From the IMG/VR virus record IMGVR_UViG_3300035516_000805: a stretch of 64,000 nucleotides of DNA; one strand, written 5' to 3'. The stretch comes from a virus (lineage: Duplodnaviria > Heunggongvirae > Uroviricota > Caudoviricetes). Positions 206 to 33,069 of the stretch are shown piece after piece (position 1 is the first letter of the stretch; every line of letters starts with the position of its first letter). The translations under genes were made by a program, and so were the position numbers. A model generated the notes under the pieces. That model made no database searches. It was given only the letters and a program-made list of their open reading frames with translations, and had not been told where the DNA came from.

Positions 206-699
206 AGCTTGACCACCTTATCCTTTTTACTTAAATATTTTTTTTTAAATAAATTTCCACTTAAATAATGTAAAACTTATCAGTTTAACATTGTTTGGAA
301 AGTAAATTATATATATACACAATTTGTTTTTATTTAAAATGTGTAGGAACATAATTGTATAATTTTCTTTGTTTTAAAACCAAAGGTTTTAAATAAAAAA
401 GAAAAGATTTATTTTTGGAGCTTTTAAAAAGAAAGTGGCTATTATTGTGTCTTTATTCTTTAAAGTTAATTCTTTTTCAGTAAACTTTAAAATAAACTGA
501 TTTTATATACCTTTTAAAGTTTTATCCTTTTAATTTGAGACATTTGTTGTCTTAAAATCTATATTTAACTTAGACAGTAGTTCCTTTATAGCTACTATCT
601 AAGTCAGTACCCTATAAGTTAAATCTTAAAAACTTAATCCTATGGTTAACTTTAAACTTTTAACTCAGCAGTTTCAGTCTTCAACGTATTATTTTTTTT

Positions 700-3093: not shown

Positions 3094-3119
3094 GCTGGTA
3101 GTTTTTAAAAACTACCAGC
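3094..3119. terminator. bidirectional hairpin terminator between convergent genes
   Basis: gctggtagttttt-aaaa-actaccagc perfect hairpin between + gene ending 3021 and - gene ending 3130. Confidence 0.55.
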
Positions 3120-3129
3120 TAACTATGTT

Positions 3130-4353
3130 TCACATATCATTGTCATAACCAAATTCTTCATAATCAATTTCTTCGTGAGTAAAATTGAAAATGTCTTGTA
3201 ACTCTTCTTCACTAAAGATGTCACCATATATATATTCAATATCACTTACAAATTCATAATAAGAAAGTGGACTGTAATTGTATGCCATTGTAACTATTTC
3301 TGAATAAATTGCATCCCAGTCTTCATCTGTAATATTATTTGTATCTATATCATTATCAGTTAAACTAAACATAGAATAATAACTGTTAGAATATGAATAT
3401 CCACTTCCGTAATAATCTGAATAAGTTTTAACCGGCAAGTGTATCTCCTTATTCCGTTCCAATAAATATTCCTTAATATGTTTTAATTCTTCACGGTCTT
3501 CTTTTGACGCTGCTAAGTAATATTCCTTTATAAAATGCTCTAATATTAAGGTATATCCTAAAAATGTGGGTTCTTTTACGTCTAATCCATAATTGCTATG
3601 CATAGAGCCATTTGTAGGCAGACAATAAGAAAATTCTGCACAATCATGTTTTCTATAATAAAATGATTCATCCGTCATAGTAAGAGAAGGCTCTATATAT
3701 TCTTCATCAAAAGGAGATGAGTCATTTTTATTATTTTTTATGACACAAAAAGACTGTGACGGTTCTGAACTTAAAAAGCACTCCCGGATATGGTCCGACA
3801 ATAATTTAGGAGCTTTTGAATTCCACCCTTCTACGGATGCCAATAAATTTTTATTAAAGCCTTCATAAGTAACATCCAACGTAATAACAAATGGAAGAAT
3901 ATAGTGGTCTTTAAAAAATTTTAAAGAAGAAGCTGCACCAGACATTCGACCTGTTTCCTCTTCAGCCGTAAAAGTAAAAAATACATTGTCTGGCAGTTCA
4001 TTACGCAGCATTAATGTTGTTGCAACTGCATTAGTTCCTAAATTGTCATAAGTTCCGTGATAAATATTATCTTCACATTTGCTTGATACGTTTGTAATTT
4101 CATTTACGATATCTGCATGTGTTGATACTAAAACAGCATTATTTTGAGGATGATTTTTACCATAAATAACACAATTATTGTCTTTATAGACTATATAATA
4201 TGGAGAATTTACTAAGAGAGCTTCAATCTCAGTCAGTTTTTCTGTATTAGTAAAACCATTTTTGTTTGACCTTGCAGGTTTTGATATTTTATCTAAAACC
4301 ATATCAAGTGTATCTTTTAAAGTATCTAATATTAATTGTTCTTGTTCTGTCAT
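3130..4353 (-). CDS. M42/M28-like metallopeptidase-like protein (divergent)
   Basis: Motifs STHAD, YDNLGTNAVA, FTAEEETGRMSGAAS resemble the HxD / DDxxG / EEvGxxGA blocks of the M42 aminopeptidase fold; second metal-site Asp replaced by Asn. Confidence 0.45.
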   Translation of the reverse strand: MTEQEQLILDTLKDTLDMVLDKISKPARSNKNGFTNTEKLTEIEALLVNSPYYIVYKDNNCVIYGKNHPQNNAVLVSTHADIVNEITNVSSKCEDNIYHGTYDNLGTNAVATTLMLRNELPDNVFFTFTAEEETGRMSGAASSLKFFKDHYILPFVITLDVTYEGFNKNLLASVEGWNSKAPKLLSDHIRECFLSSEPSQSFCVIKNNKNDSSPFDEEYIEPSLTMTDESFYYRKHDCAEFSYCLPTNGSMHSNYGLDVKEPTFLGYTLILEHFIKEYYLAASKEDREELKHIKEYLLERNKEIHLPVKTYSDYYGSGYSYSNSYYSMFSLTDNDIDTNNITDEDWDAIYSEIVTMAYNYSPLSYYEFVSDIEYIYGDIFSEEELQDIFNFTHEEIDYEEFGYDNDM

Positions 4354-4544
4354 CGCTTTAACCTCCGTTTATATTAATAATGTAAAATGGAAGTTTTGTT
4401 TTTTATAAAACTTCCATTACACTACAAGTTCTTTAGAACTTAGATGGTAGTTTTATAAAAACTACCATCAGTAGTGATAGAAGATAAAATCTTCTATCTA
4501 ACTTATAGTAAAATGGAAATTCTTTAGAATTTGTAATAAAATAT

Positions 4545-4596: not shown

Positions 4597-5136
4597 ATGA
4601 ATGATTATAAAACATTAGCAAAGGACTTAGCCGGTTTAACACTTTATGAGTTAAAACAGGGAAAAATTATTTCGAAGGAAAATACTGACCAAGATACTAT
4701 TATAAAAAGAATCATATTAAAAAATAAAATTTTTAAAAAGAATGTCATTTATTTTGAAATTATTAATGGAAAAAAGATACTAGATAAGGAAGAACTTTAT
4801 AAGATTCCCAAAGATAATATTAAGAGAATGAATTACTTAGAGCGTAATTCAACGTTTTTAGAAAATCTTTATCTGTATTCTTTAGAAATGATGGAAGACA
4901 GATTTAATTATGCAGTAAAAGAAAAACAGCTTCAAGATGAAGAATTAATGCTTAAAAAAGACAAAAAAGAATTAAGTAAAACAGGTCAGTTGGAAGTTTT
5001 CAAAAGTTCCAACATTACTCTTTCTTCTTCACCTACGGTTTCAGAAGGTTCTTCGAATTCTTTCTTAACAGAAAATTCTTTGAGTCCTTCTTCGCAAAGC
5101 AATATCAGACCAAGAAGAAAACTTAGAAAAGATTAA
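4597..5136 (+). CDS. hypothetical protein (Ser-rich C-terminus)
   Basis: 179-aa ORF with RBS AAGGAG. Confidence 0.5.
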   Translation: MNDYKTLAKDLAGLTLYELKQGKIISKENTDQDTIIKRIILKNKIFKKNVIYFEIINGKKILDKEELYKIPKDNIKRMNYLERNSTFLENLYLYSLEMMEDRFNYAVKEKQLQDEELMLKKDKKELSKTGQLEVFKSSNITLSSSPTVSEGSSNSFLTENSLSPSSQSNIRPRRKLRKD

Positions 5137-5609: not shown

Positions 5610-5867
5610 AATTACAACCTTCTTTCTGTATTATTTTTACTTTTATATAATAAGACAAAAATCATTTAATTAAGTTCCTTATAAAGTTAATAATTTTGGA
5701 CATTTTTATTTATTTTGTTAAAAAAGATAACAAAATAAATAAGTTCTTACACAATGTAAACTTTAAAAGTTATACATACTATAATGGTCTTTAATTTTAA
5801 AGATAATCATATACCGTTCCATTATAATAATTTTTATGTGAAATTACAATAATAGTTTTCATATAAA

Positions 5868-5999
5868 TTATTTAAAAACTGACTGTCCCATTTTTCCTAT
5901 ACAATAAATATTTATAGAAGAAGTGGAACATATATCATTTTTATCATTATTGTAATGTTTTTCTATATAATAGGTATATTGATATGGTATATGATTCAT
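5868..5999 (-). CDS. small conserved ORF inside long direct repeat copy A (43 aa)
   Basis: MNHIPYQYTYYIEKHYNNDKNDICSTSSINIYCIGKMGQSVFK; a near-identical ORF is present in repeat copy B, differing by amino-acid replacements rather than frameshifts. Confidence 0.3.
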   Translation of the reverse strand: MNHIPYQYTYYIEKHYNNDKNDICSTSSINIYCIGKMGQSVFK

Positions 6000-6113
6000 A
6001 TATTTTTACCCTTTAACGCAAAAACTTTATAATGTTTCACTTTTTAAGGTCTTATTTTAAGTTTTTAACTTTTATACATAAAATTTTTATATTTAAAACG
6101 AAAAAACTTATAA
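5884..6113 (+). repeat. copy A of ~230-bp long direct repeat (copy B at 35266-35498)
   Basis: Near-identical sequence by eye (a few mismatches). Confidence 0.85.
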
Positions 6114-6129
6114 TTTTAGGACTTTACAT

Positions 6130-6420
6130 TTATAAAAAACATAAAAGTTAAAATTTTATAAGGTTTAATCATAAAATTCTTTAAATTTCTATTTTATCTA
6201 TAAAAGTTTAACCTTTATAGATTTTAACCTTTAAAGAATAAAACCTTTATAGATTTTACTTTAAAGGTTTTCCATTTTATAGTTTTTCACTTTTATAGTT
6301 TTTCACTTTTATAGTTTTTAACCTTTAAAATATTCAAACTTTTATAGTTTTAAAACTTTTAATTTTCCAAACCTTTATAATTTAAACATTAATATACTTT
6401 CGGCTAAAGTTTTGACTTTT
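6130..6420 (+). repeat. iteron-like array (putative replication origin)
   Basis: Repeated CTTTTATAGTTTTT / ACCTTTATAGATTTTA units, including 3 perfect tandem 16-mers CACTTTTATAGTTTTT. Confidence 0.6.
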
Positions 6421-7742: not shown

Positions 7743-8003
7743 ATGAACAATGAAATTTTAAATGTATTACCGGTTGAATTACAAAAAGACCTTATTAAAT
7801 TAATTAATTTAGAAATGAATGGTTGGTCTTTAGAATGGTATTCAAAAGCAAAAGACATTATATATCAAATGAATTTATTAAGAGATGACGGAAAATTACC
7901 AAAAAATGTTTATGATATTATTTATTCAGATTATTTAAAAGAAATGGGAAAATTAGAGAAGATAAATAATAATTTTTTAAACTTTTATTTTAATCGCAAA
8001 TAG
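7743..8003 (+). CDS. hypothetical protein
   Basis: 86-aa ORF downstream of AAA+ gene. Confidence 0.5.
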   Translation: MNNEILNVLPVELQKDLIKLINLEMNGWSLEWYSKAKDIIYQMNLLRDDGKLPKNVYDIIYSDYLKEMGKLEKINNNFLNFYFNRK

Positions 8004-8009
8004 AGAGGG

Positions 8010-8450
8010 TTGGCTATGTCATTAAATGAATTAATAGAATACATAAAAAGTGCAAATATAAATGATAAAAAAGATTATATGCAAATTATTAAGGATACAT
8101 TAGATTCTTTTGTAGATTATTTTAATATTGTTGTAGATATGCAAATTTTTTCACAAACAAATATATCTTGGACTTCTAAGACCGAATATATGTATAAGGT
8201 CAAAGATGAAAATAGACGTGAATCACATAATATTTGTATTTCTTATTGTGAAAAAATTAATCAGCTTGCTAAACTTTTAGATTTTGATTTATACATTGAT
8301 ACAACTGATAGGCATATAGTTGCTTGTTTTATCGGAGATACTATTATGGAAAATTATTCAAAAGGAATTGATAGAACCTTCAATGAAATGGTAATAGACT
8401 ATAGTAAATCTGGCAGAATTTTACAACAAATAGAAATAGAGGATTTATAA
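8010..8450 (+). CDS. hypothetical protein
   Basis: 146-aa ORF, RBS GAGAGGG. Confidence 0.55.
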   Translation: MAMSLNELIEYIKSANINDKKDYMQIIKDTLDSFVDYFNIVVDMQIFSQTNISWTSKTEYMYKVKDENRRESHNICISYCEKINQLAKLLDFDLYIDTTDRHIVACFIGDTIMENYSKGIDRTFNEMVIDYSKSGRILQQIEIEDL

Positions 8451-8452
8451 TT

Positions 8453-8839
8453 ATGATAATGCCTTATAAAAAATATCAAGATGAAAACCAATACATTACT
8501 ATTTATAAAAATTATGGATATGAAGCAAAAATAATACAATTTATCAGCCCACTGGATAATAGTCCATATTTATCAGTTGAAGTAAAATGTGAATATTTGA
8601 ATTTTCACCCGTATCCAATAATTAAATATAATCGTGCCACAAATCAATTAGAAGGAATATTCAATTCTTTTTTTGTGCTAACAGAAAATAACGAACAAGA
8701 ATGGATTCTAGGAATTCAAAATGCAGTTAATTTTATCAAAGAAATGAATGAAGTGATTAAAAAAGATTTGCAAATGGATATAAAAGAACTACAAGAACTA
8801 CAAGAACTACAAGAACTTCAAAATATTCAAGAAAAATAA
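8453..8839 (+). CDS. hypothetical protein with C-terminal ELQ repeats
   Basis: Translationally coupled to the previous ORF; 9-bp tandem repeat gaactacaa at 3' end. Confidence 0.55.
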   Translation: MIMPYKKYQDENQYITIYKNYGYEAKIIQFISPLDNSPYLSVEVKCEYLNFHPYPIIKYNRATNQLEGIFNSFFVLTENNEQEWILGIQNAVNFIKEMNEVIKKDLQMDIKELQELQELQELQNIQEK

Positions 8840-8859
8840 TTTTTCATTAAAATTATGTA

Positions 8860-8960
8860 AAAAACAGAACTTAGATAGTAGTTTTGAAAGGAACTACTAT
8901 CAGTAGTTATTTTATAACTACTGTTTAAGAAATTCTTTAGAACTTCCAACTAACCAAAAT
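8860..8960 (+). repeat. intergenic hairpin-repeat cluster (TAGATAGTAG...CTACTAT / TTCTTTAGAA / CTTCCAACTAACC)
   Basis: cagaacttagatagtagttttgaaaggaactactatcagtagttattttataactactgtttaagaaattctttagaacttccaactaacc. Confidence 0.7.
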
Positions 8961-8982
8961 TTTTATTAAAATAAAAATTTTG

Positions 8983-9030
8983 GTTTTACATTATTAATAG
9001 TAGAAACATTAATTGTTTCTACTATTTTTA
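8983..9030 (+). promoter_or_regulatory. class II motif + AGTAG...CTACT hairpin
   Basis: ggttttacattattaatagtagaaacattaattgtttctactattttta. Confidence 0.5.
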
Positions 9031-9049
9031 TTTAAAAGGAGAAATTACT

Positions 9050-18437: not shown

Positions 18438-18457
18438 TTGTAGAGCATATATTAATA

Positions 18458-18492
18458 CTGACATTATTAGTAATACATTGTCATATTCAGAG
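18458..18492 (+). promoter_or_regulatory. class I promoter/operator
   Basis: ctgacattattagtaatacattgtcatattcagag. Confidence 0.55.
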
Positions 18493-18511
18493 TAAAAACA
18501 GGTGATAAAGT

Positions 18512-18868
18512 ATGGAAATAACATTATTCATGTTAAAGATTTGTTGTATACAATTAGGTATCTTATTAATAGCTATTATAGGATATAAATTTTTAACTCA
18601 CCTTGCTTTTCCGAGAGAGGGAAAAGCTCAAGGAATCTGTAAAGAAGTCCGTGTTGAATTAACTTCTGAGATAGATGATTATTTGTACCCTCATAGAGCA
18701 GATAGAAGGTCATACCGGGTCTATATCCAGTACGAATATAAAGGCGTACCGTATATGGCAAAGTCCTACCGGATGTATTCTGCAGCAAAATACTTTCCGG
18801 GGAATACCGTTATGGTCTGGGTAAATAAAAATAATAAAAATATTGTTGATATAATATCTAATTCTTAA
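18512..18868 (+). CDS. hypothetical membrane protein
   Basis: N-terminal TM helix; downstream of class I promoter 18458. Confidence 0.5.
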   Translation: MEITLFMLKICCIQLGILLIAIIGYKFLTHLAFPREGKAQGICKEVRVELTSEIDDYLYPHRADRRSYRVYIQYEYKGVPYMAKSYRMYSAAKYFPGNTVMVWVNKNNKNIVDIISNS

Positions 18869-18894
18869 CAATATATTTTTTTTATTTAAGATTG

Positions 18895-18925
18895 TTGACA
18901 TTAATAATAATACAATGTCATATTT
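18895..18925 (+). promoter_or_regulatory. class I promoter/operator
   Basis: ttgacattaataataatacaatgtcatattt. Confidence 0.6.
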
Positions 18926-18954
18926 ACAATAGAAAAAATCTGAGGTGAATAGAT

Positions 18955-19116
18955 ATGAAAAGTAATTATAAAGAAAAGAAAAAAGATAAGGCAGTAAAAC
19001 CATTGTATTATGACGATACCGAAGTATTTATTATCCAGTGCATCTGTGGAAATACAATGGACAGCAGAACTTTTAAAAAGCGATGTACTGCTTGTGGACA
19101 AAAACTAAAAGTATAG
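18955..19116 (+). CDS. small zinc-ribbon protein (53 aa)
   Basis: CxC...CxxC; RBS TGAGGTG; downstream of class I promoter 18895. Confidence 0.4.
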   Translation: MKSNYKEKKKDKAVKPLYYDDTEVFIIQCICGNTMDSRTFKKRCTACGQKLKV

Positions 19117-19200
19117 GAGAAAAGTATAAAAAACTTATTTTATCGTAGTTTCTTTAGAACTACTATCTAAACAACTTTAACAAAAATAGGAGGAAAGGAT

Positions 19201-20004
19201 ATGTTACAAATCGTAAACAATTTTGATGTTGCTGAAATAAAAAAGACTATAGCAGATTTCGTTCATACAGAATCATTTCACGGACTATGCGATAACTTTG
19301 ATAGTAATTCTGAAATATTTTCAATGGATAGTGATTATGAAAAAAAAGATGATATTTATATAAAAATGTCATTGTTAGTTTACACGGTTCTATGGGTAAT
19401 TTCTACTGTTTTTATTATATGGGAAATTTCTCCTATAGCAATACAATGGTATCCAACGACAAGAGTAGAAAAGGCTGCATTTATCGTTATTATGGGAGGT
19501 ATTACTGCAATTATTTTTCTTGTATTGTATTTATTTTTTAATTTTTTGCAAAATGAGAAATACACAAAGCAGCTTCGAGTATACACACTGGATAAATTAA
19601 GCAAAATAAAAGACAATAGTATTGCAATTAATGATTATCAAGAATTGGCAACATTAATAGATTTTCTTATCAAACATTGCAGTCGTAATATTTCCGAATA
19701 TTATCATTTGCTTGAACGTGTGAAAGGTAACTTACAGAATTATATTTGGATTACAAATATCATACAAAACAACATCATCACTGATACACAGGAACATATT
19801 CGAATTGTTGAAATACAGGAAGATATCAATAAACCTTTGCCTAATATTTATGTTACATACGAAAGAAGTAACGGTGACGTGGAAAAGCATTATATTCCGG
19901 GCTTAATTGATGAAGTTGTTGAAAATATGAATATTGAAACATCACACTTGATTTGTTCGAATGAAAAAGTTATATTAAAAGTGCCATATAAAAAAGAAAC
20001 TTAG
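19201..20004 (+). CDS. hypothetical membrane protein
   Basis: RBS AGGAGG; two long hydrophobic segments. Confidence 0.6.
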   Translation: MLQIVNNFDVAEIKKTIADFVHTESFHGLCDNFDSNSEIFSMDSDYEKKDDIYIKMSLLVYTVLWVISTVFIIWEISPIAIQWYPTTRVEKAAFIVIMGGITAIIFLVLYLFFNFLQNEKYTKQLRVYTLDKLSKIKDNSIAINDYQELATLIDFLIKHCSRNISEYYHLLERVKGNLQNYIWITNIIQNNIITDTQEHIRIVEIQEDINKPLPNIYVTYERSNGDVEKHYIPGLIDEVVENMNIETSHLICSNEKVILKVPYKKET

Positions 20005-20056
20005 ATAGTAGTTTCTTTTAGGACTTGTAATTAAATTTTGAAAGAAGGTTAGTAAT

Positions 20057-20251
20057 ATGAGCCAAAAAGAATTACAGCGATTATATGATTTACTTGAAAA
20101 AGTGACAGACGAAGATGAAAAAGCGGCATTAAAACATGCTATATTTATTATTGAAGGGCAACAACAGAAAGTAATACATAAAATATGGAAGTATATAGAA
20201 ATTAAAAGTCTTAGAGAAGCAAAGAAAGATGAAAAATCACTTTTTACATAG
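20057..20251 (+). CDS. hypothetical protein
   Basis: 64-aa ORF. Confidence 0.4.
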   Translation: MSQKELQRLYDLLEKVTDEDEKAALKHAIFIIEGQQQKVIHKIWKYIEIKSLREAKKDEKSLFT

Positions 20252-20266
20252 CGGGAGATTAGAAAA

Positions 20267-20686
20267 ATGAAAAAAGAAGAAATTATATTTTACGCAGAAA
20301 GAAAAGGCTTTTGTATATATGAAGTGCCAGAGGGAAGAAAGCTTTTTTATAAGATAAGGATACCGACGTTTACAGAGGGAAAAGTAACACCGACGGGGTA
20401 CAAAGATATGCTTGTAGGAAATATAAAAGAAGTAAAAAAGAAAACAGATGAAATATGGGAAAATGACGAGTTTAGACAGAAAGCAGCCGCATGGGTTAGG
20501 ACGTGGTAAAAAGGTTATAAAAGCGTCAAGAAATGGGTGCGACATAAGGTAAGACCGAAAGGCACGGAATGTAAACAGAGACATTACAAGCAGGCTGGTA
20601 ATAGTATACCCGTACCGATATTTGAGAGCTTGTTTAGAAAAATAATACTGAATGAAACGAAAGAAAGTGAGGCGCAGTATGAGTAA
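20267..20686 (+). pseudogene. remnant 3' fragment of a DNA (cytosine-5) methyltransferase, interrupted by an in-frame stop
   Basis: After an in-frame TAA at 20507 the frame continues to HYKQAGNSIPVPIFESLFRKII, which matches C5-MTase motif X (QxGNSV); no upstream catalytic motifs. Confidence 0.5.
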
Positions 20687-20789
20687 AAGCACATACCATA
20701 TAAAGGAAACAAAGGACAGCTACAGCTTTTCATATAGTGGAGATTTAAAAGAGGCTTTGGAAAAGGCACTTAAGGATGCAAAGGCAGGT

Positions 20790-20870
20790 CAGTTGGTAGT
20801 TCTCTGAGAGAACTACCAACACTACTGATAGTAGTTATAAAATAACTACTATCTAAGAAAGTGTAAACTC
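20790..20870 (+). repeat. hairpin-repeat cluster
   Basis: gttggtagttctctgagagaactaccaacactactgatagtagttataaaataactactatctaag. Confidence 0.7.
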
Positions 20871-20925
20871 CTAATATGGAGAGAAGTTGAAGACGAAAAT
20901 GATAGAAATTTTTTATCTAATCTTA

Positions 20926-20952
20926 TTGACATTAATAGTAATACAATGTCAA
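20926..20952 (+). promoter_or_regulatory. class I promoter/operator
   Basis: ttgacattaatagtaatacaatgtcaa. Confidence 0.55.
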
Positions 20953-20997
20953 AATTAAAATAGAAATTCACACACTAAAAGGGGGAACAATGGTATT

Positions 20998-21210
20998 ATG
21001 ACAACAACAGAAATTTTAAGTATAATTCATAAAGAACATGCAGAATTAGAAATATATGAAGCTTTACATACATGGTTGTTAAATGACAGGGTAGAATGGA
21101 TTAATAAAGCAATGGAAAATAAAGCTACTGTGAAAGCAATTAAAAAGTTAGCAAATAATTCTAATAATAAAAATGCAGCATTAGAAGGTATTACGAATTT
21201 GTGCAATTAA
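20998..21210 (+). CDS. hypothetical protein
   Basis: Downstream of class I promoter 20926; RBS GGGGGA. Confidence 0.45.
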   Translation: MTTTEILSIIHKEHAELEIYEALHTWLLNDRVEWINKAMENKATVKAIKKLANNSNNKNAALEGITNLCN

Positions 21211-21280
21211 TAACCCAAAAGCAAATAAAGAAGCTGAGTTATAAAATAATTAATGATAATACAAGAAAGGATAATGTTAT

Positions 21281-21442
21281 ATGAAAATGAAGCCAGAAGT
21301 AGAATTAGGAGAAATCAAATTACTTTGCCCGAAGTGCGGAGAAGAACTCACAACTCACGTATGTTCTAAATGTGGTTGTGAAATAGATATGAGTGAAATT
21401 ACCATAGATATTCAACCGGAAGAAATTTTAGGATATGAATAA
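21281..21442 (+). CDS. small zinc-ribbon protein (53 aa)
   Basis: CPKCG...CSKCGC. Confidence 0.35.
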   Translation: MKMKPEVELGEIKLLCPKCGEELTTHVCSKCGCEIDMSEITIDIQPEEILGYE

Positions 21443-21472
21443 ATGGTGAATTTTATATAAGAAGGTGGAAAT

Positions 21473-21802
21473 ATGGATTATAAAGAATTACTCAAATCAA
21501 AAGGATTTTCTTTAAATGAATATCCAGAAGGAAAATTTTGGGAACTTGTAGTAGAAAATGATGAACAGTTAAAAGAAAAACTTTGTAATATTTTTAATGC
21601 AGAGATTGATTTGTTTACCAATGGAACTGACATTGACACACTTATTTTACAATGTACAGAAGATTTTACTGGGTGTATATTCTATTATGATTGTAACCCA
21701 TTTGATATGGGTACAAAAGAATTTATGAATTGTATAACAAGAATACCAGAAGAAAAATGTCATATTATTAAAACAAATAATGAAGATATATTAATAAAGT
21801 GA
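21473..21802 (+). CDS. hypothetical protein
   Basis: RBS AGGTGG. Confidence 0.5.
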   Translation: MDYKELLKSKGFSLNEYPEGKFWELVVENDEQLKEKLCNIFNAEIDLFTNGTDIDTLILQCTEDFTGCIFYYDCNPFDMGTKEFMNCITRIPEEKCHIIKTNNEDILIK

Positions 21803-21922
21803 GGTAATATTCTTATGGGAGATTATGTAGCTGCTTATTGTAATCCTGATGAAAATTCATTTTCTGAAAACGAATCATATATAGAAGATGCAGGATATAC
21901 AATTAGATAGGAGGAAAAATAT

Positions 21923-22162
21923 ATGGACACACCAACACTTGATAAAATGTTAGAGATTAAGGAACAATCACAGCTTTGTGGTGAGTTTTTAGAGTGGCTG
22001 CAAAGTAAATATGCAATGTTTAAACTAAAAACTCCAAGTACTGACCTATATTATGGAACAGGCGATTATATTAATACAGAAAAATTATTAGCTGAATTTT
22101 TCGGGATTGACTTAGAAGAAGCCGAAAAAGAAAGAGCTGCTTTGCTGAAAGAGGTGAAATGA
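21923..22162 (+). CDS. hypothetical protein
   Basis: RBS AGGAGG. Confidence 0.5.
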   Translation: MDTPTLDKMLEIKEQSQLCGEFLEWLQSKYAMFKLKTPSTDLYYGTGDYINTEKLLAEFFGIDLEEAEKERAALLKEVK

Positions 22163-22474
22163 ATGAAATATGTAACACAACTATCAGATGAAGAACTAAC
22201 CGAAATCTACAAAATGTTTATGGGTGAAGGTGCTGATTTTGTATCATTAGACATTACAAGATTTGATGACAGTATTTCACTTGACGGATACATTAAAATT
22301 CCAGATGACGAAGAAGAAGCTGAGAATGGAATGATTGAAGTAGAGGATAACTATGAAATCACTGATTATAATGTAAAAGTGTATTGTCATTCTGGTTACG
22401 TAACAAAGGAATTTCGAGAATTTATGTATAAAAAATTCGGTGATGAATATGCAAAGGATTATTTGTTTTTATAG
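22163..22474 (+). CDS. hypothetical acidic protein
   Basis: Start overlaps the stop of the previous ORF (translational coupling). Confidence 0.5.
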   Translation: MKYVTQLSDEELTEIYKMFMGEGADFVSLDITRFDDSISLDGYIKIPDDEEEAENGMIEVEDNYEITDYNVKVYCHSGYVTKEFREFMYKKFGDEYAKDYLFL

Positions 22475-22516
22475 ATTTATAATCATATGATGGATTAAAA
22501 GAAGAGGTTCATATAA

Positions 22517-22762
22517 ATGGAACAGTTGAAATGCTTAATACATTCTGACGAATTTGGTTCATATTCGGCAAAGGAAGTATTAAAACAAATTCAAAATAAA
22601 AATTTAGGAATAGAATTCCCTAACAAACCAATAGATGAAACTTGTCTACAAGATTTGATGTATAAAGGCAAACAGTGTTGCGACTCTATTTCTATTGGTA
22701 AAATATGGAACGAAAAACTTTGTACATATACAGAAAGAGAAATACTTTTGCGATTTGCATAA
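22517..22762 (+). CDS. hypothetical protein
   Basis: RBS AGAGG. Confidence 0.45.
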   Translation: MEQLKCLIHSDEFGSYSAKEVLKQIQNKNLGIEFPNKPIDETCLQDLMYKGKQCCDSISIGKIWNEKLCTYTEREILLRFA

Positions 22763-22807
22763 GATATGAAATCTAAGTTTTATGGTGAATCAGAAGGGAG
22801 AATTATT

Positions 22808-23029
22808 ATGGCAAAGAAAATAATATACACAGATGAATTTGGTAATAAAATTGATGTAAATACTATTGAAGGAATTCATAAAATATTCAATGATATTTTG
22901 TCTGTATGCGAAACGGAAAATTCTTGTATGTGCGTGAAAGAAAACGTGAAAGCTAGTATAAATAAGTGTTACAATACAAGAATTAAAGAATTAGAAACTG
23001 GCAAAGAACAAGATAAAAGTATTTGGTAA
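22808..23029 (+). CDS. hypothetical protein
   Basis: ATG after GAAGGGAG RBS; the track's alternative start is 22766. Confidence 0.45.
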   Translation: MAKKIIYTDEFGNKIDVNTIEGIHKIFNDILSVCETENSCMCVKENVKASINKCYNTRIKELETGKEQDKSIW

Positions 23030-23087
23030 ATATAGAATATAATTTTTTATGAAATTGACCGATTTTGTAATAACAATGTAATACACA

Positions 23088-23116
23088 GTATTGATAATGT
23101 TTATATTTGATGCTAT
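23088..23116 (+). promoter_or_regulatory. sigma-A-type promoter for TA operon
   Basis: TTGATG-N-TATAAT-like tttgatgctataattt. Confidence 0.45.
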
Positions 23117-23142
23117 AATTTAACCAAAAAGGAGTTGATTAT

Positions 23143-23436
23143 ATGGCAAATACAACTATTACAATGCGAATTGACGAAGATATAAAAATCCAATTGCAAG
23201 AGTTAACAACAAAATTAGGTATGGATGTTTCAACATACCTTTTAATGGCAGTAAAACAAGGAATAAGAGAGCAGGCATTACCATTTCATCCTAATTTAGG
23301 AGTAAATAGAAATTTAAAGAAGGAAGAAGCGTTTGAGTCTATGGAGGAAATAGTAAATAATAAAGTTATTTTAAATTCTAATATAGATTATGATGCGGAG
23401 TTAGCTTCTTATAGGGATGAAAAATATGGAAAATAA
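23143..23436 (+). CDS. RelB/DinJ-family antitoxin (ribbon-helix-helix)
   Basis: MRIDEDIKIQLQELTTKLGMDVSTYLLMAV is typical of DinJ/RelB; overlaps the downstream PIN gene. Confidence 0.65.
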   Translation: MANTTITMRIDEDIKIQLQELTTKLGMDVSTYLLMAVKQGIREQALPFHPNLGVNRNLKKEEAFESMEEIVNNKVILNSNIDYDAELASYRDEKYGK

Positions 23437-23848
23437 AATTTTAATAGATACAAATATTTTACTTGATTATTTTCTAAAACGAGAGCCATTCTATCAATAT
23501 GCAAAAAAAATAATTTCTTTATGTAAAAGTGATGAAATACAGGGGTGTATCGCTTCTCATTCCATTTCTAATATGTTTTTTATTTTGAGAAAAGAATATT
23601 CATCAAAAGAAAGAAGAATATTATTATTGGATTTGTGTTTGATTTTTACAGTTATTGATATTAATAAAAGTAAACTAATAAATAGTCTTAAAAATGAAGA
23701 TTTCACTGATTTTGAAGATTGTTTACAAATGGAATGTGCAAAAGAATTTGATGCAAAATATATTATAACAAGAAATATAGACGATTATAAAACTTCTGAG
23801 ATTCCGTCAATTACACCAAAAGAATATTTAGAAATTATAGAAAGATAA
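23417..23848 (+). CDS. PIN-domain (VapC-like) toxin
   Basis: ILIDTNILLDY N-terminal PIN motif; later acidic residues; start overlaps the antitoxin gene. Confidence 0.7.
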   Translation: MKNMENKILIDTNILLDYFLKREPFYQYAKKIISLCKSDEIQGCIASHSISNMFFILRKEYSSKERRILLLDLCLIFTVIDINKSKLINSLKNEDFTDFEDCLQMECAKEFDAKYIITRNIDDYKTSEIPSITPKEYLEIIER

Positions 23849-24123
23849 AATGATGTTAGCTAGTAGTCCTTTTAGGACTATTTAAACAATAGTTATTTAT
23901 AACTACTATCTAAGATATAAAGAAATTTTAAATAGTTTATCAAAAGAGCAGCTAATATATTTAATAATATAGGCAGTAGTTTTAAATTACTGTCTATTTT
24001 TTTATTTTCCATTTTACTATAAATTCTAAAGAATTTACGGTGTATAGAAGTTCTAAAAGAACTTCTATTAAACAAAACATTATTTATAATGTTTTAGGGA
24101 AATTCTATAAAAACAGAACTTCC

Positions 24124-24137
24124 ATTTTACATTATTT
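24124..24137 (+). promoter_or_regulatory. class II motif
   Basis: ccattttacattatttttatagaaataaat, upstream of gene 24169. Confidence 0.4.
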
Positions 24138-24168
24138 TTATAGAAATAAATAATAAAGGAGAACTTCT

Positions 24169-24828
24169 ATGGATAAGAAATATGAATTGACAGATGAAAC
24201 AATAAAAATTGATAGCGGTGAAGTATTACATAGAATTAAAGCTTTAAAAGACTTTGCAGACATTAAAGCAGGCGACATTGGAGGATTTGTAGAGTCAGAA
24301 GATAATTTATCCCAAGAAGGTAATTGTTGGATATATAATGAAGCTAAAGTATATAATAACGCTAGAATTTCAGATAATGCTTTAGTTTATGATAATGCTA
24401 AAATAACAGGTAATGCCATAATTTATGGCAATGCTAAAATTTATGAATATGCACATGTCTATGATAATGTTATAATATCCGGTAATGCCATAATTAGTGG
24501 CAATGCTAAAGTTTATGATAATGCTAAAGTTTCATATAATGCACAAGTCTATGGTAATGCTATAATTTCAAATGATGTTAAAATTTGGGGTAATGCAATT
24601 ATTTATGATAATGCCAGAATTTATGATTTAGCTAGAATTTATGATGATGCGAAAATTTTTGGTCACGCTAAAATTTATGGTAACACTAAAATTTTAGGCA
24701 AATCAAAAATTTGCAACAACACTGAAATTCATGGTAATTTCTTTATCTGTGATAATGTAAAGTTTGATGCTAATATGTCTGTCATTGAAAATTTTAATAA
24801 AGATGAACAAATAAATGAAGAACGATAA
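24169..24828 (+). CDS. hexapeptide-repeat (left-handed beta-helix) protein
   Basis: About 20 consecutive 6-residue repeats [YF]xNAx[IV] (18-bp DNA periodicity). Confidence 0.7.
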   Translation: MDKKYELTDETIKIDSGEVLHRIKALKDFADIKAGDIGGFVESEDNLSQEGNCWIYNEAKVYNNARISDNALVYDNAKITGNAIIYGNAKIYEYAHVYDNVIISGNAIISGNAKVYDNAKVSYNAQVYGNAIISNDVKIWGNAIIYDNARIYDLARIYDDAKIFGHAKIYGNTKILGKSKICNNTEIHGNFFICDNVKFDANMSVIENFNKDEQINEER

Positions 24829-24859
24829 AAATTTATAAAAAAATAAAGATATAAAAGAT

Positions 24860-24930
24860 GGAAGGTCAGTTAGTAGTCCTTTAGGACTACTAACACTACT
24901 AATGGTAGTTTTACCTTCCATCAAAGTTAA
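24860..24930 (+). repeat. long composite hairpin repeat
   Basis: tggaaggtcagttagtagtcctttaggactactaacactactaatggtagttttaccttccatc. Confidence 0.7.
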
Positions 24931-24970
24931 TATTACTACTACTTATATCTTTATTTTAACTTAAATTTAT

Positions 24971-25228
24971 TTAACTACGATTGTTATTACGTTGAAGTTT
25001 AAATTTTGCCATTGAAGAATCCGGGAAATCTCGTTCAATTTTTTCATTAATTGCAGTCCTAATAAATTTTCCTACCGGCATATTTGATAAATCTGCTGCC
25101 GGTTTTATCTTTTCATTATATTCTTCGTTTACAAAGGGAATTAATACCCTATGTGTATTTGTCTTTATATACTGCTTCGTCTTTTCATTCCATTCTTTCG
25201 TATATCTTCCTGTTCTTGAATCCGCCAT
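24971..25228 (-). CDS. hypothetical protein sharing its N-terminal motif with the + ORF at 26245
   Basis: N-terminus MADSRTGRYTKEWNEK is encoded by the left arm of an inverted repeat. Confidence 0.4.
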   Translation of the reverse strand: MADSRTGRYTKEWNEKTKQYIKTNTHRVLIPFVNEEYNEKIKPAADLSNMPVGKFIRTAINEKIERDFPDSSMAKFKLQRNNNRS

Positions 25229-25230
25229 AA
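25183..25230. repeat. left arm of ~33-bp inverted repeat (partner at 26317-26349 and its tandem copy)
   Basis: The reverse complement encodes SRTGRYTKEWNEK, as does the right arm; 3 mismatches over 33 nt. Confidence 0.7.
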
Positions 25231-25334
25231 TATTTTCTTCCTTTCTATATTTTTTTAATACTTATACATTCAAATTTTATCTTATTTACAGTATGTCTTT
25301 CATTATTAATAATGTCAAATAAAAATTTTTATGT

Positions 25335-25349
25335 TTTTTACATTATTTA
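25335..25349 (+). promoter_or_regulatory. class II motif
   Basis: ttttttacattatttatatataaaatgg. Confidence 0.35.
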
Positions 25350-25482
25350 TATATAAAATGGAAGTTCTTTAGAACTTTTTAAATAGTAGTTATAAAATAA
25401 TTACTCTGATAGTAGTTATAAAGGAACTACTGTCTAAGATGGAAGGTTCAGACTTGGCTTTTAAAGATGAAAGGAAGAAAAA

Positions 25483-26220
25483 ATGATTGATTTTGCTATA
25501 ATTATTCCCTGTTACAATGAAGAAGCTGCCATAGAAGACGTTTTGAAAAATCTTATTTATGTTATTACACATGAGTTTACTGATAATAGTGTAAAAATTT
25601 TTGTATATGATAATAATTCTACTGATAATAGTGCAAAAATTGTAACAGACTTTATTGCTCAAAATTCATATGAAAATTTATCTGTAGAGTTAAGACATAC
25701 ATATAAACAGGGAAAGGGTTACGTTATCCGGCAGGCTTTTAAGGAAATTAATGCCAGATGCTATTGTATGATTGACGGTGATGATACTTACAGTGTAAGT
25801 AAACTTAAAACTATGTATGACCTTATAATCAATAAAAAAACTGATATGGTTATAGGTGACAGACTTTCTACAAGTTATTTTACTGAAAATAAGAGAATAT
25901 TTCACAATTTTGGAAATAAACTGGTAAAAAATATGATAAACAATATGTTTAATACATCATATAATGATATACTGTCAGGTTTTAGAACATTTTCATATAA
26001 TTTTGTAAAAACTTTTCCAGTTACTTCCAATGGTTTTACACTTGAAACAGAGATGAATATTTACGCAGCAAGTCATAACATGTCTGTTTTAGATATACCA
26101 GTGGATTATAAAGACCGTAAAAATGGCAGTAAATCCAAAGTGAAAACAATTCCTGATGGTATCCGTATTATTTTTAAAATTTTAGATATGTTCAGACTAT
26201 ATAATCTTCCAACTAACTAA
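25483..26220 (+). CDS. family-2 glycosyltransferase (GtrB/CsbB/DPM1-like)
   Basis: IIIPCYNEE...VYDNNSTDNS...MIDGDD are signature GT2 motifs. Confidence 0.8.
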   Translation: MIDFAIIIPCYNEEAAIEDVLKNLIYVITHEFTDNSVKIFVYDNNSTDNSAKIVTDFIAQNSYENLSVELRHTYKQGKGYVIRQAFKEINARCYCMIDGDDTYSVSKLKTMYDLIINKKTDMVIGDRLSTSYFTENKRIFHNFGNKLVKNMINNMFNTSYNDILSGFRTFSYNFVKTFPVTSNGFTLETEMNIYAASHNMSVLDIPVDYKDRKNGSKSKVKTIPDGIRIIFKILDMFRLYNLPTN

Positions 26221-26244
26221 GTCTAAAGAAAGGAACAACTTATT

Positions 26245-26346
26245 ATGCTTTATCAGAAGATATATTCAAAAACAGGTAGATATACAAAAGAATGTATGCT
26301 TTATCAGAAGATATATTCAAAAACAGGTAGATATACAAAAGAATGG
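26245..26346 (+). repeat. 51-bp perfect tandem duplication at the 5' end of the membrane-protein gene
   Basis: atgctttatcagaagatatattcaaaaacaggtagatatacaaaagaatgt x2. Confidence 0.85.
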
Positions 26347-27228
26347 AACGAAAAAGAGAATACTTCAACAGCTATATGCTGGCGTATAACAATATGGTCA
26401 ATTTTTATAATCACCCTTTTATATTTATCATTTCAATTTAACGATACAGATTTATACTATATTATTCCAACAGGACGTTATATTTTACAAAATGGAATCC
26501 CTTATGAAAATCCATTTATAACAACAGCCGGACAAAATATTGTTATTCAAAATTGGCTGTATTGTGTAATTGTAGCATTTATTTATAATCATTTACACAG
26601 TGTAGGTTTGTGGCTATTACAATTAATAATTATAACTGCAATGGTAACTATAATCTTTAAATTCTTTGATTTTAAACATTCAGAGAATAAACTTATGGTT
26701 ATTATTTTTTCACTTATTATTATAAAATTATTTAGTTATATAAATTTAAGACCTGAAATACTTACTTTTATTTTAATTATATTAGAAATTCTAGGTTTGG
26801 AAAAATATATTACTACTGAGAAAGCATACTGGCTGTGTTTATTACCACTAACTACATTACTTGAGATTAACTGTCACGCAAGCTATTGGATAATGCATTT
26901 TATTGTAATTTTACCTTATTGTGTTCCAACTTTACCTGCAATTTCACGCAGTAAAAATACTTATATTAAAAACATAAAAAAATTAATCCTGCCAGTTTTT
27001 TCAATGATAGTAACATTATTTATTAATCCGTATAAAGTTAAAGCAATTCGGTATGTTTTTGATGCATTAAAATCCGGAATAATAAAATATAATGAAATTT
27101 GGGAACAACAGCCATTTACAATGTCAGATATATATACATATATATATATGTATATTAATTATTTTTATTATTATGTGGTATCAAAAGAAGTTGACTTCAA
27201 CAGAAACTTATATGTTTATTGGGTTTAA
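26245..27228 (+). pseudogene. polytopic membrane protein, 5' part (GtrC/YfhO-like candidate); frame breaks at a (TA)n tract
   Basis: Multiple TM segments; N-terminus carries a 51-bp tandem duplication; frame continues in the overlapping ORF 27092-27910. Confidence 0.5.
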
Positions 27229-27910
27229 TACATTATTTGTATTTGCTATAAAATGGACAGCTTTTTATGTAATTGCAGTAATGTTTTTATTTAGAGCAAT
27301 TCACAGACAGGTTAAGGAGAAAAATAAAATTGAAAACATTAAAGCTTCTAAAATTAATATTTATCTGCTTTTGATATCCTATACAGTAACATTTTTAGGC
27401 TATATGCTTACAGAAAATTCGTTTAAATGTTTTGATTTTACGGATACATATATGAATACATGTCTAAATAAAAAGAGTCTGCAGCCACTTAATGATATTG
27501 CTGATTATCTTGATGAGAATGACCCTGATGCATCAATATTTGCAATTTTTGAACAGTCAAACTATTTTGAATTTAGAGGCTATAAAGTTTATAGTGATGC
27601 AAGACCGGAACTTTATACAAAAGAAATTGCCGGTTCAGATGATATATCCGTAAATGTTTTGTGTATACAAAAAGGTTATAATGTCTTTTTATATAAAGAA
27701 AATACTGGTATATTTTCATCTTCAGATGAAAATAATTTAGTTAATTCTCTTATAGATTTAAAAACTTATAAAGCTGTAATTGACAGTATTAACACAGATT
27801 ATTTTGTAGTTAATAAGTTTAATACGGCATTTTGGTATTATTTAGAAACATCAGATGATTATACTTTCATTATGGATTCCGGACAATTTGCATTATATTT
27901 AAGGCAGTAG
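27092..27910 (+). pseudogene. polytopic membrane protein, 3' part (same gene as 26245-27228 after a frameshift)
   Basis: The frames overlap around atatatatacatatatatatatgtatat (about 27126-27158); TM helices continue. Confidence 0.5.
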
Positions 27911-27936
27911 TATAAGTACTACTGCCTGTTTATTTA
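27903..27936 (+). terminator. intrinsic terminator
   Basis: ggcagtagta-taag-tactactgcc hairpin followed by tgtttattta. Confidence 0.6.
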
Positions 27937-32821: not shown

Positions 32822-32877
32822 AATTTTTAAAAATATTTTTGTTAAAAATTTATACATTAGGTAATAATTATACATTT

Positions 32878-32914
32878 GGTGTATGGCTAATGCCATACAC
32901 CTCTTTCTTTTTAT
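32878..32914 (+). terminator. intrinsic terminator (cassette copy 1)
   Basis: ggtgtatggc-taat-gccatacacc hairpin followed by tctttcttttt. Confidence 0.75.
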
Positions 32915-33045: not shown

Positions 33046-33069
33046 AATATGGGAGGAATTTAGAAATAA

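Follow-up and report, generated by a model that had tools for sequence, protein, structure and literature searches.

A dense family of interspersed palindromic units on a large, AT-rich, plasmid-like replicon of uncultivated bacteria

The DNA analysed here is a 64-kb window (the whole stretch of 64,000 nucleotides from IMG/VR virus record IMGVR_UViG_3300035516_000805), and at positions 4439-4502 it carries a twin-hairpin element that exemplifies a dense family of short palindromic repeats (Table 1). An earlier note, made from the letters of the window, had proposed such a family from an exemplar locus at 4380-4535 and more than 20 others, of which it listed 17. A covariance-model census together with a test for partner arms bore the proposal out, and the motifs, or remnants that can still be recognised, are present at the exemplar and at every one of the 17 listed loci. 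With moderate confidence, we interpret the units as a replicon-private family of mobile or recombinogenic palindromes that resembles the repetitive extragenic palindromes (REPs) and bacterial interspersed mosaic elements (BIMEs).

Census and anatomy of the repeat family

Short motifs of the family are over-represented in the window. The palindrome TTCTWWAGAA occurs 15 times compared with 1.2 expected, ATAGTAGT 17 times compared with 2.9 expected, and the 7-nt arm core TRGWAGT 45 times on the + strand compared with ~20 expected. The partner test, an unbiased measure in that it involves no pre-selection of hairpins, found an exact reverse-complement partner at most 30 nt away for 14 TRGWAGT cores, where 0.03 were expected and where no more than one was seen in any of 100 Markov simulations. 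Extraction of the copies with a covariance model, as proposed in the earlier note, was made with a model built from 23 units (R1) and yielded 28 strong units in the window (distinct loci at E < 0.01) and ~14 weaker ones (E < 1). In a 22-kb relative that lacks the family (L003), which served as the control, the same model gives one weak match. Further units are matched on both flanking contigs (L149 and L150, 10 kb each), such that the family, with its arms conserved, continues elsewhere on the replicon. There are ~40 copies per 64 kb (~0.65 units per kb), covering 2.7% of the sequence and ~12% of the non-coding DNA; the earlier figure of about one element per 3 kb is corrected to approximately one array per 2 kb. 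As for covariation, eight of 12 pairs, in inner and outer parts of the stem, change on both sides and yet still pair, and 96% of cells are paired, although these values are biased because the seeds were pre-chosen as hairpins.

The basic unit is a palindrome of 23-33 nt with arms of the form (TTAG)-WTRGWAGT, the outward TTAG extension being frequent. Within the arm consensus, [G/A][A/T/C][T/C][A/G]G[T/A]AGT, positions T3, G5, A7 and G8 are nearly invariant, and each of the variable positions is mirrored in the partner arm. Stems measure 10-13 bp (up to 20 bp) and enclose loops of 2-9 nt, which are mostly AAA, TTT, TTTT or ATA rather than TTTA/TAAA as initially described. What had been taken for two separate sets of arms (GTTGGAAG... 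and CTTAGATAGTAGT...) is one continuous family. The palindrome TTCTWWAGAA, in turn, is enriched but heterogeneous, and only part of it belongs to the family: some copies form the apex of family hairpins (GGAAGTTCT-WW-AGAACTTCC), some are coding, and six belong to a separate palindrome module (ACYRYAAATTCTWWAGAATTTRYRGT, D10) that lies upstream of promoters.

Units are combined according to a restricted grammar, in which flanks and linkers are limited to three motif pairs (CTTA/TAAG, GTYA/TRAC and AGTAGT/ACTACT). These define a twin-hairpin composite of ~66 nt, GTYA-[hairpin]-ACTACT-[hairpin]-TAAG, with GTAG/CTAC lying within the linker. It is found in this orientation (B) at 13478, 20788, 24866 and 32915, and as its reverse complement (orientation A) at 4439, 8866 and 18283 as well as on both flanks (L149 and L150); the two orientations are balanced, with ~6-7 each, despite the fact that the genes nearly all point one way. 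In folding, each twin composite forms two hairpins that are independent of each other (z from -6 to -8.6), and a third module, TAAG-AAGKTCT..AGAMCTT-CCAAC-TAAC (D17), is often appended to them. At four places (13478-13569; 24856-24925; ~5000-5105 of L149; ~1264-1350 of strain L135) a composite is nested in the loop of another hairpin, either G[A/T]TGRAAGGT..ACCTTCCAWC or GTTGGAAGTTTT..AAAACTTCCAAC. AGTAGT/ACTACT flanks ~26 of the 44 tabulated units and provides the linker in every twin composite, whereas single units carry CTTA/TAAG or TAAC instead; GTAG also occurs within many stems. The two ends of the composite, GTCAGTTGGAAGT and (as reverse complement) CTTAGTTAGTAGT, match at 10 of 13 positions because its two hairpins resemble each other.

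The perfect palindrome at 46399-46439, with its 19-bp stem, coincides with the ends of independent short-read assemblies: four contigs (L001, L002, L168 and L169) stop inside it, at window positions 46403 and 46428. Perfect palindromes thus break short-read assemblies of the element at fixed positions.

Table 1. Coordinates of the palindromic units, arrays, remnants and associated hairpins in the window (R1, match to the covariance model; motif, recognised by motif).
Feature	Position	Strand	Evidence
Single unit, ACTTA-GACAGTAGTTCC..AGCTACTATC-TAAGT	568-604		R1 E=0.003
Single unit GCTGGTAGTTTT-TA-AAAACTACCAGC with TAAC end, between convergent genes	3094-3123	-	R1 E=1e-6
AATGGAAGTTTT..AAAACTTCCATT hairpin adjoining minus-strand TTTTACATTATT promoter motif of gene 3130-4353	4386-4418		R1
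AAGTTCTTTAGAACTT palindrome, apex-type remnant of GGAAGTTCT..AGAACTTCC unit	4426-4441		motif
Exemplar twin-hairpin composite, orientation A, CTTA-(GATGGTAGTTTT..)-AGTAGT-(GATAGAAGAT..)-TAAC, between divergent promoters	4439-4502	-	R1, z = -7.6
Partial unit ATGGAAATTCTTTAGAATTTG upstream of promoter motif	4513-4533		motif
In-ORF unit GTCA-GTTGGAAGTTT..AAAGTTCCAAC-ATTACT, ORF 4597-5136	4985-5019	+	R1
Three-unit array, starting in orientation A and ending ..CTTCCAAC-TAAC, between stop codon 8839 and promoter	8866-8954	-	R1
Remnant, two 3' arms (AACTACTATC, twice) and TAAG, over stop codon of 12218-13207; canonical terminator follows	13203-13232		motif
Array GTTA-(GTTGGAAGTTTT..)-ACTACT-(..ATAGTTAT..)-TAAG-(AAGTTCT..AACTTCCAAC)-TGAC; alternatively, unit nested in 16-bp outer hairpin	13478-13569	+	R1
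Two-unit 5' UTR array, between sigma-70-type promoter 15702-15731 and ribosome-binding site of 15852	15775-15836		R1
Decayed in-ORF composite GTTA-(GTTGGAAGGT..ACCTTCCAAC)-ACTACT-ATC, ORF 15852-17141	16710-16748	+	R1
Twin-hairpin composite, orientation A, between stop 18259 and canonical terminator 18347-18385	18283-18349	-	R1, z = -6.8
Degenerate single unit between cistrons	19141-19171		R1 E=0.07
Unit with decayed 3' arm, over stop codon of 19201-20004	19995-20030		motif
Twin-hairpin composite, orientation B, GTCA-(GTTGGTAGTTCTC..)-ACTACT-(GATAGTAGTTAT..)-TAAG	20788-20857	+	R1, z = -8.6
Two-unit array, 7 nt past stop 23848; 3' arm of first unit truncated	23855-23915	+	R1
Unit TATAGAAGTTCT-AAA-AGAACTTCTATT	24043-24069		R1 E=2e-5
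Nested array, outer hairpin GATGGAAGGT..ACCTTCCATC with 43-nt insert (24867-24909)	24856-24925	+	z = -7.7
5' UTR array between promoter motif 25335 and ribosome-binding site of 25483	25357-25450		motif
Unit AGGCAGTAGTA-TAAG-TACTACTGCCT spanning stop codon of 27092-27910	27902-27927		motif
66-nt twin-hairpin composite, orientation B	32915-32980	+	R1, z = -7.8
Hairpin AGTAGAAATTCTTT..AAAGAACTTCTACT with ATCTAAG, right after promoter motif	37722-37760		R1 E=0.03
Single unit lengthened to 20-bp stem	40973-41018		R1
Degenerate array over stop codon of helicase gene 43680-46091	46085-46160	-	R1
Array ending in perfect 19-bp-stem unit (46399-46439)	46344-46445		R1
AATGGAATTTCT..AGAATTTCCATT hairpin adjoining promoter motif	48333-48376		R1 E=0.5
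Unit with truncated 3' arm, 4 nt past stop 49180; canonical terminator follows	49185-49207		motif
In-ORF unit enclosed by perfect 22-nt inverted repeats (85-nt palindrome), ORF 53322-54125	53498-53582		R1
AATGGAAATTCTGT..ACAGAACTTCCATT hairpin adjoining promoter motif; A·C mismatch common to at least 4 other copies	58539-58571		R1
5'-arm-only remnant GTTGGAAGTTCT, immediately after stop 59373	59374-59392		motif
5'-arm remnant AACTTAGATAGTAA	63771-63790		motif
Sub-class leader hairpin AATAGTAGA..TCTACTATT then T-run, directly downstream of TTTTACATTATT promoter motif	8996-9026	+	R1
Further leader-hairpin copies	52721-52753, 58582-58611, 61344-61371, 63808-63838		
D10 palindromes	24011-24044, 48235-48268, 48300-48333, 50811-50844, 58506-58539, 61268-61301		

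Position in transcripts, probable copying and turnover

The location in short gaps between genes that had been described for the family holds for 25 of the 28 strong units, which lie outside open reading frames (ORFs) of at least 80 aa (P = 4e-14), but the other three lie inside ORFs. The usual order is stop codon, array, canonical terminator and then promoters, while further units are found in untranslated regions (UTRs) and in one untranscribed gap between divergent promoters. Since hairpins mostly follow genes, and those at 3094-3123 and 24856-24925 lie between convergent genes, the units might be regarded as diverged intrinsic (Rho-independent) terminators. This explanation is largely refuted, and the termination signals suggested in the earlier note are not supported. 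A T-run (at least five T in the 8 nt after the stem) follows none of the 23 strong non-leader units, only one of the ~20 family units in a terminator scan of 8000-27000 passes, and that marginally, and separate canonical terminators adjoin the arrays, usually after them. The arms moreover share conserved sequence, which would be unexpected of independent terminators. Position alone excludes termination in some cases, as the arrays at 15775-15836 and 25357-25450 lie in 5' UTRs, between promoter and ribosome-binding site and directly before the latter, and the exemplar composite lies in an untranscribed gap upstream of both divergent copies of the promoter motif.

Copies of the units have loops and imperfections in common across loci. 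The hairpin AGTAGTTAT-AAA-ATAACTACT is found in five copies and AGTAGTCC-TTT(T)-GGACTACT in approximately five, each at different loci, the loop CTGAAA(G) recurs four times, and an A·C mismatch in GAAATTCT..AGAACTTC is present in at least five copies. Because the copies share loops and imperfections, we infer that whole units have been copied rather than that stems have been maintained locally. The apparent covariation could then reflect amplified master variants together with correction of arms by template switching, or else selection for pairing.

Comparisons between paralogous and orthologous sites show gain, loss and exchange of units. Two paralogous spacers, 32835-33048 and 41355-41502, are 89-97% identical, and the 66-nt composite at 32915-32980 is present only in the first, the second lacking it at 41435, with no target-site duplication (filled site TTTTTAT[66 nt]AGGAGG, empty site TTTTTATAGAGG). 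Strain L135, which is 98.85% identical over 15.4 kb, lacks exactly 43 nt (24867-24909), leaving the simple hairpin GATGGAAGGT-TTT-ACCTTCCATC, and its 5' UTR array at 25357-25452 has been swapped wholesale for a different nested composite between identical flanks. In the paralog and the strain comparisons alike, the ends of the indels coincide with unit edges. Elsewhere, a point difference in strain L156 (23889 A>G) turns an A·C mismatch back into a pair, another difference falls in a loop, and strain-specific DNA of L144 holds four more units. An inversion between the GATGRAAGGT hairpins that flank the minus-strand gene 24971-25228 was considered as the cause of the insert's apparent move, and was rejected as the segment is collinear in both strains. 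The duplicated spacers are regulatory in appearance, each with a terminator-like GGTGTATGGC..GCCATACACC and a promoter, and precede the topoisomerase III gene and the tandem RecD2-like helicase paralogues (genes 41491-43662 and 43680-46091).

More distant relatives are devoid of the family over the sequence available. A sister element from another sample, ERR11559578, with proteins 67-71% identical, has no R1 unit in 5.4 kb, where ~3.5 would be expected from the density in the window, and nonetheless keeps the TTTTACATT[A/T]TT promoter motif and leader hairpins; a cousin at 59% has none in 13 kb. The turnover between strains and the absence from relatives indicate that the units are recent and dispensable additions to this lineage. 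Rearrangement breakpoints fall repeatedly at the apex of palindromes, a pattern that fits either an enzyme acting on extruded loops of single-stranded DNA (ssDNA) or centre-break repair of hairpins. The 85-nt palindrome in ORF 53322-54125, whose 22-nt perfect arms are an inverted copy of flanking coding sequence, looks like a recent template-switch or fold-back event.

These data bear on whether the units are selected RNA cis-elements, i.e. processing sites for RNase III or RNase Y, or 3'/5' stabilisers that uncouple neighbouring genes in the manner of the T7 and SP82 RNase III hairpins. Most arrays indeed lie in transcribed spacers (stop-to-terminator, inter-cistron or 5' UTR), the stems are stable, as the folding scores given above attest, and remain paired through two-sided changes, and the genes are nearly all co-oriented, making long transcripts likely. 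We nevertheless consider this explanation unlikely, and the dedicated RNA-processing role suggested in the earlier note received no positive support. Stem mismatches comprise 11 G·T and 11 A·C, such that neither strand is favoured and there is no G·U excess, and this equality, the absence of an orientation preference and the shared imperfections and loops argue against selection on the + strand transcript. Relative to transcription, the asymmetric composites point either way with equal frequency, and one of them lies upstream of both divergent promoters. Strains of 98.9% identity differ by the gain, loss or exchange of units, a paralogous spacer that has the same promoters lacks them, and the sister element keeps the promoters with no units. 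No standard unit of the family matched Rfam, including its models of CRISPR direct repeats, even at E up to 5; the sole overlap is a chance-level match to mir-4637 (E=0.085) over the 85-nt palindrome at 53498-53582.

Two further ideas were dropped. The sequence ACTACT-GTT-AGTAGT recalls the stem of the Cas12a repeat, but mimicry of a CRISPR repeat finds no Rfam match among the direct-repeat models. Single-strand promoters or priming sites of a conjugative leading region are at odds with stems too short to hold -35 and -10 boxes and with the lack of strand asymmetry.

The replicon, its promoters and its mobile DNA

The window has 27% G+C, no tRNA genes, ORFs that lie nearly all on the + strand, and a GC skew that rises steadily. 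Searches against Pfam and PHROGs identified a topoisomerase III and a separate protein with a C-terminal Toprim domain, three RecD2/Dda-like helicases and one SNF2 helicase, a ParM-like actin, a signal peptidase, a DUF5688 protein and a sigma-70-type factor (gene 54238-55266). Toxin-antitoxin-like genes are numerous (RelB/PIN, PIN_3, PIN7, three HipA_C and two Fic). Contigs of other samples lengthen the element by 10 kb on each side, adding a DnaE-type polymerase and a TnpB gene upstream, and a nuclease, a TnpB fragment and a MOBV (Mob_Pre) relaxase downstream, which brings the examined sequence of the replicon to at least ~83 kb (the 64-kb window and ~10 kb per flank). Ribosome-binding sites are Firmicutes-looking. 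The whole is a large, AT-rich, plasmid-like replicon of uncultivated bacteria; no close relative was found in phage or plasmid collections, and one helicase shares only 33-45% identity with its best homologue.

Two sequence features form a candidate origin of replication or partition site, namely an array of ~16-nt iteron-like direct repeats (TTTNACYTTTATAGNT) at 6196-6345, upstream of an AAA+ ATPase gene, and a duplicated segment of ~280 bp (5863-6144 and 35236-35521, 88-93% identity), the second copy of which lies upstream of helicase gene 35609-37600.

The gene content calls to mind a cassette system, with the units acting as its recombination sites and bounding mobile gene modules, in the manner of integron attC, which recombines as a folded single strand, or of pdif/Xer. 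The genes are co-oriented, and many are small, of no assigned function or of toxin-antitoxin type (RelB/PIN, HipA-like, Fic), palindromes are placed at ORF 3' ends, the termini GTTAG.../...CTAAC bear a loose resemblance to the attC core GTTRRRY/RYYYAAC, and rearrangement breakpoints fall in palindrome loops. We regard this explanation as highly improbable. No tyrosine or serine recombinase was found in the window, GTTAGTT fails GTTRRRY at position 6, the units are 23-33 nt long whereas attC sites are at least 57 nt, and the spacing of the arms is variable, without the fixed 6-8 bp spacer of Xer sites, whose layout is 11-6-11; attC sites have an R''-L''...L'-R' architecture. In addition, the genes have their own promoters, and junctions hold several units in both orientations.

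Mobile elements make the replicon a mosaic, and several of them are evident from comparisons between strains. A full-length Rfam HEARO RNA (IscB-type omega RNA; 97 bits, E=1e-18), the only above-threshold Rfam match in the window, lies at 17401-17611 on the + strand with no adjacent IscB ORF. At this locus strain L144 has an intact gene for 335 aa and another for 85 aa, from which we infer that the HEARO-bearing segment 17405-17733 replaced those genes in the window strain; its right breakpoint is the centre of a palindrome, AAATTCT/AAAGAATTT, at 17731-17740 (the slash marks the centre). At 18982, strains L156, L157 and L160 carry an inserted gene for a 229-aa HNH protein that splits a small ORF, and after 41352 a contig of sample 3300035499 (L161) holds an IS607-like unit with a MerR-resolvase and a TnpB-like ORF.

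Promoters fall into two groups, which suggests two temporal or regulatory classes on the element. The first is the promoter-like motif TTTTACATTATT, with (A/T)AGTAGA 1-3 nt downstream of it, present at ~21 sites of the window just upstream of ribosome-binding sites (e.g. 961, 4545, 8984, 13297, 17788, 24127, 33070, 52709, 58570, 61333 and 63796, and on the minus strand 4376-4389). It often has an AATGGAA..TTCCATT hairpin before it and, after it, a leader hairpin, AATAGTAGAnnn..nnnTCTACTATT, and a T-run, which together look like a leader terminator or 5' stabiliser. The motif is kept in the sister element (L154; L165 as TTTTACATTTTT) and may be recognised by the replicon's own sigma factor. The second class, TTGACAT-N12-ATGTCATAT, has ~14 sites (e.g. 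10626, 13626, 15702, 18458, 18895, 20926, 33000, 37638, 41455 and 49262) and has a sigma-70 -35 box separated by an 18-nt spacer from a TG-extended -10 (CATATT); an operator-like palindrome, TGACAT..ATGTCA, is embedded in it. The separate D10 family of 26-nt palindromes (ACYRYAAATTCT-WW-AGAATTTRYRGT) lies upstream of TTTTACATTATT promoters, explains several of the TTCTWWAGAA matches and is a possible operator.

An alternative is that the repeat units are themselves binding sites of a replicon-encoded DNA-binding protein, as duplex or extruded cruciform in a global regulatory or structural network, or loading sites for the helicases or topoisomerase III of the element. Comparable networks exist in the stoperators of mycobacteriophages and in the IHF and gyrase sites of BIMEs, the sites here are symmetric and strand-independent, and the invariance of alternate arm positions (T3, G5, A7 and G8) is what base-specific recognition predicts. 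The motif ATAGTAG is also found within the promoter module, TTTTACATTATT-N-ATAGTAGA, and the replicon encodes many uncharacterised proteins, helix-turn-helix proteins and its own sigma factor. Such a role is nonetheless very unlikely, as the distance between half-arms varies from 5 to 15 nt, which does not suit a dimeric operator of fixed duplex geometry, truncation or decay has affected many copies, strains can dispense with the sites, which the sister element lacks, and no candidate protein was identified.

Possible mobility of the units and comparison with known systems

The preferred reading remains that of REP/BIME-like units, mobile or recombinogenic and private to this replicon. Both the spread and the turnover of the family would take place in DNA, through the copying and pasting of whole units, with either a hairpin-recognising ssDNA enzyme acting in trans, or recombination, template switching or centre-break repair at palindromes, as the driving force of the spread. 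Near-perfect stems would thereby be kept by a DNA-level process rather than by selection on RNA. Those hairpins that are transcribed would probably delay 3' exonucleases in the role of passive 3' stem-loops, by analogy with E. coli REPs, and the units would serve as rearrangement hot spots.

Several observations weigh against this interpretation. REPs are accompanied in the same genome by a cognate REP-associated tyrosine transposase (RAYT), a Y1 HUH enzyme whose gene REPs typically flank. The search for one, proposed in the earlier note, detected none in the ~83 kb examined: the 61 window ORFs of at least 80 aa (Pfam on all, NCBIfam on ten unknowns) gave no match to a RAYT/Y1 or other transposase or to an integrase, and neither did the precomputed Pfam annotation of the 20 kb of flanks. 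The resident TnpB element was rejected as the source of the hairpins, as its own end hairpins are unrelated. Insertion events show no target-site duplication and no consistent target, with AG/GTCA (slash at the junction) at five of seven GTCA-type left ends and varying sequence at GTTA-type ends. The two or three indels could be deletions between repeated arms rather than insertions, and the event at 24867 has a 2-nt GT microhomology and flanking ATGG(A/T)AG repeats. GTAG lies in the inter-hairpin linker and in stems instead of consistently ending every unit as an unpaired tag, most unit positions would also suit a function at the RNA level, and the evidence from the sister element spans only 5.4 kb. 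Finally, the description of the family as private to the replicon rests on negative pattern scans.

Those scans, and related searches, covered a range of collections. Neither megablast of phage and plasmid collections with 13-20 kb of the window nor distant blastn of plasmids with one array returned anything. In viral contigs the pattern scans gave single chance matches only, one metagenome scan gave one chance match (L125), and a scan of 185,579 species genomes gave 0 matches under the strict pattern and 4, about the chance level, under the relaxed one. One of these four, an uncultured Granulicatella metagenome-assembled genome (L133), contains a repeat of ~190 nt (4100-4200, 4300-4400 and 6320-6420; ends GACTTTRTCTATAGTAGCA / TGCTACTATGAAAAGTC) that holds a hairpin, ATAGAAGTCGG..CGACTTCTAT, followed by ACTACT, with R1 scores of 26-31 bits at three loci. 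This element lies in a chromosomal context and has its own inverted-repeat ends; it is probably a coincidence driven by the search pattern, a distant relationship to the family being less likely. Likewise, no autonomous insertion sequence with the same ends was found, the IS607-like and HNH insertions of variant strains being unrelated, and a PDB sequence search with the 407-aa minus-strand protein that is flanked by units gave nothing relevant.

A more specific proposal is that the twin composite of ~43-70 nt is an active miniature ssDNA transposon, preferring the apical loops of hairpins of its own family, that has expanded on a giant plasmid of uncultivated, Firmicute-type bacteria. This we hold to be quite unlikely. 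If true, it would represent the first plasmid-borne population of REPIN-like (paired-REP) elements with a RAYT-like enzyme located elsewhere, or else the substrate of an unrecognised hairpin-specific enzyme among the unannotated proteins.

How, then, do the units compare with known repeats? The likeness to REP, BOX or Correia-type elements drawn in the earlier note is sound in kind, given the interspersed and mostly extragenic location, conserved arms, mosaic arrays and indels at unit edges, but the target duplication of Correia elements and other miniature inverted-repeat transposable elements (MITEs), and a RAYT, were not found. Among phage repeats, the PeSL cassettes of T4-type phages and the stoperators of cluster A mycobacteriophages are similarly dense, element-specific and located in short gaps between co-oriented genes, and PeSLs mark recombination and module boundaries. 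PeSLs, however, contain a promoter and have a fixed orientation, whereas promoters here are separate and the hairpins show no orientation preference; stoperators are asymmetric duplex sites of 13-14 bp, in one orientation and bound by repressor.

MITEs such as Correia/NEMIS, BOX, RUP and ERIC share with the family their short, non-coding and interspersed nature, hairpin folding and co-transcription with neighbours, as well as presence/absence polymorphism, seen here at paralogous and orthologous sites. They differ in length, at 100-200 nt compared with units of 23-33 nt and arrays of 43-90 nt; Correia elements duplicate TA, whereas the present family shows no target-site duplication, and a search for a related autonomous insertion sequence found none. 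MITEs end in inverted repeats; the corresponding 13-nt ends of the composite simply mirror the likeness of its two hairpins. The palindrome-associated transposable elements (PATEs) derived from IS200/IS605, which Y1 HUH transposases mobilise, are similar in design, having a left-end and a right-end hairpin, asymmetric ends (here GTYA...TAAG), no target-site duplication and both insertion orientations, and the replicon holds relics of the IS200/IS605 family in its TnpB genes and orphan HEARO/IscB RNA. In contrast to PATEs, there is here no detected Y1 transposase, no conserved tetranucleotide target and no orientation bias of the kind expected of lagging-strand targeting, and the end hairpins of the resident TnpB are unrelated.

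REPs and BIMEs offer the most extensive parallel. REPs tagged with GTAG or CGTC have stems of 6-13 bp, loops of 2-4 nt and sub-families with complementary changes, and occur as dimers and clusters downstream of ORFs with some copies inside genes; an unpaired GTAG (or degenerate) tetranucleotide ends >90% of REP units, and Firmicutes do not appear in the text of the survey that describes these repeats (PMC3733652). Plasmids almost never carry RAYT genes (PMC5581495). The present family likewise consists of palindromic units in many copies, within the 20-40 nt range of REPs (here 23-33 nt, stems 10-13 bp, loops 2-9 nt), with sub-families that differ by complementary stem changes and with GTAG/CTAC adjoining the stem. 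Most members follow an ORF whose neighbour is co-directional or convergent, and they are arranged singly, as dimers or in clusters that contain linker motifs. The density of ~0.65 units per kb is, by estimate, roughly five times that of REPs in E. coli. Unlike the REPs and BIMEs of bacterial chromosomes, the family resides on a plasmid-like, AT-rich replicon with Firmicutes-like ribosome-binding sites, no RAYT was found in the ~83 kb, composites are nested in the loops of other units, and GTAG belongs to the shared linker and stems rather than to each unit as a terminal unpaired tag. The family thus works like REPs and BIMEs, yet its membership of the RAYT-associated GTAG superfamily is not proven. 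Unusual features are its location on a plasmid-like element and the nesting of its twin hairpins, and its turnover between ~99%-identical strains would make it a tractable natural system for the birth, spread and decay of palindromic repeats and for tracing the enzyme or repair pathway behind their movement.

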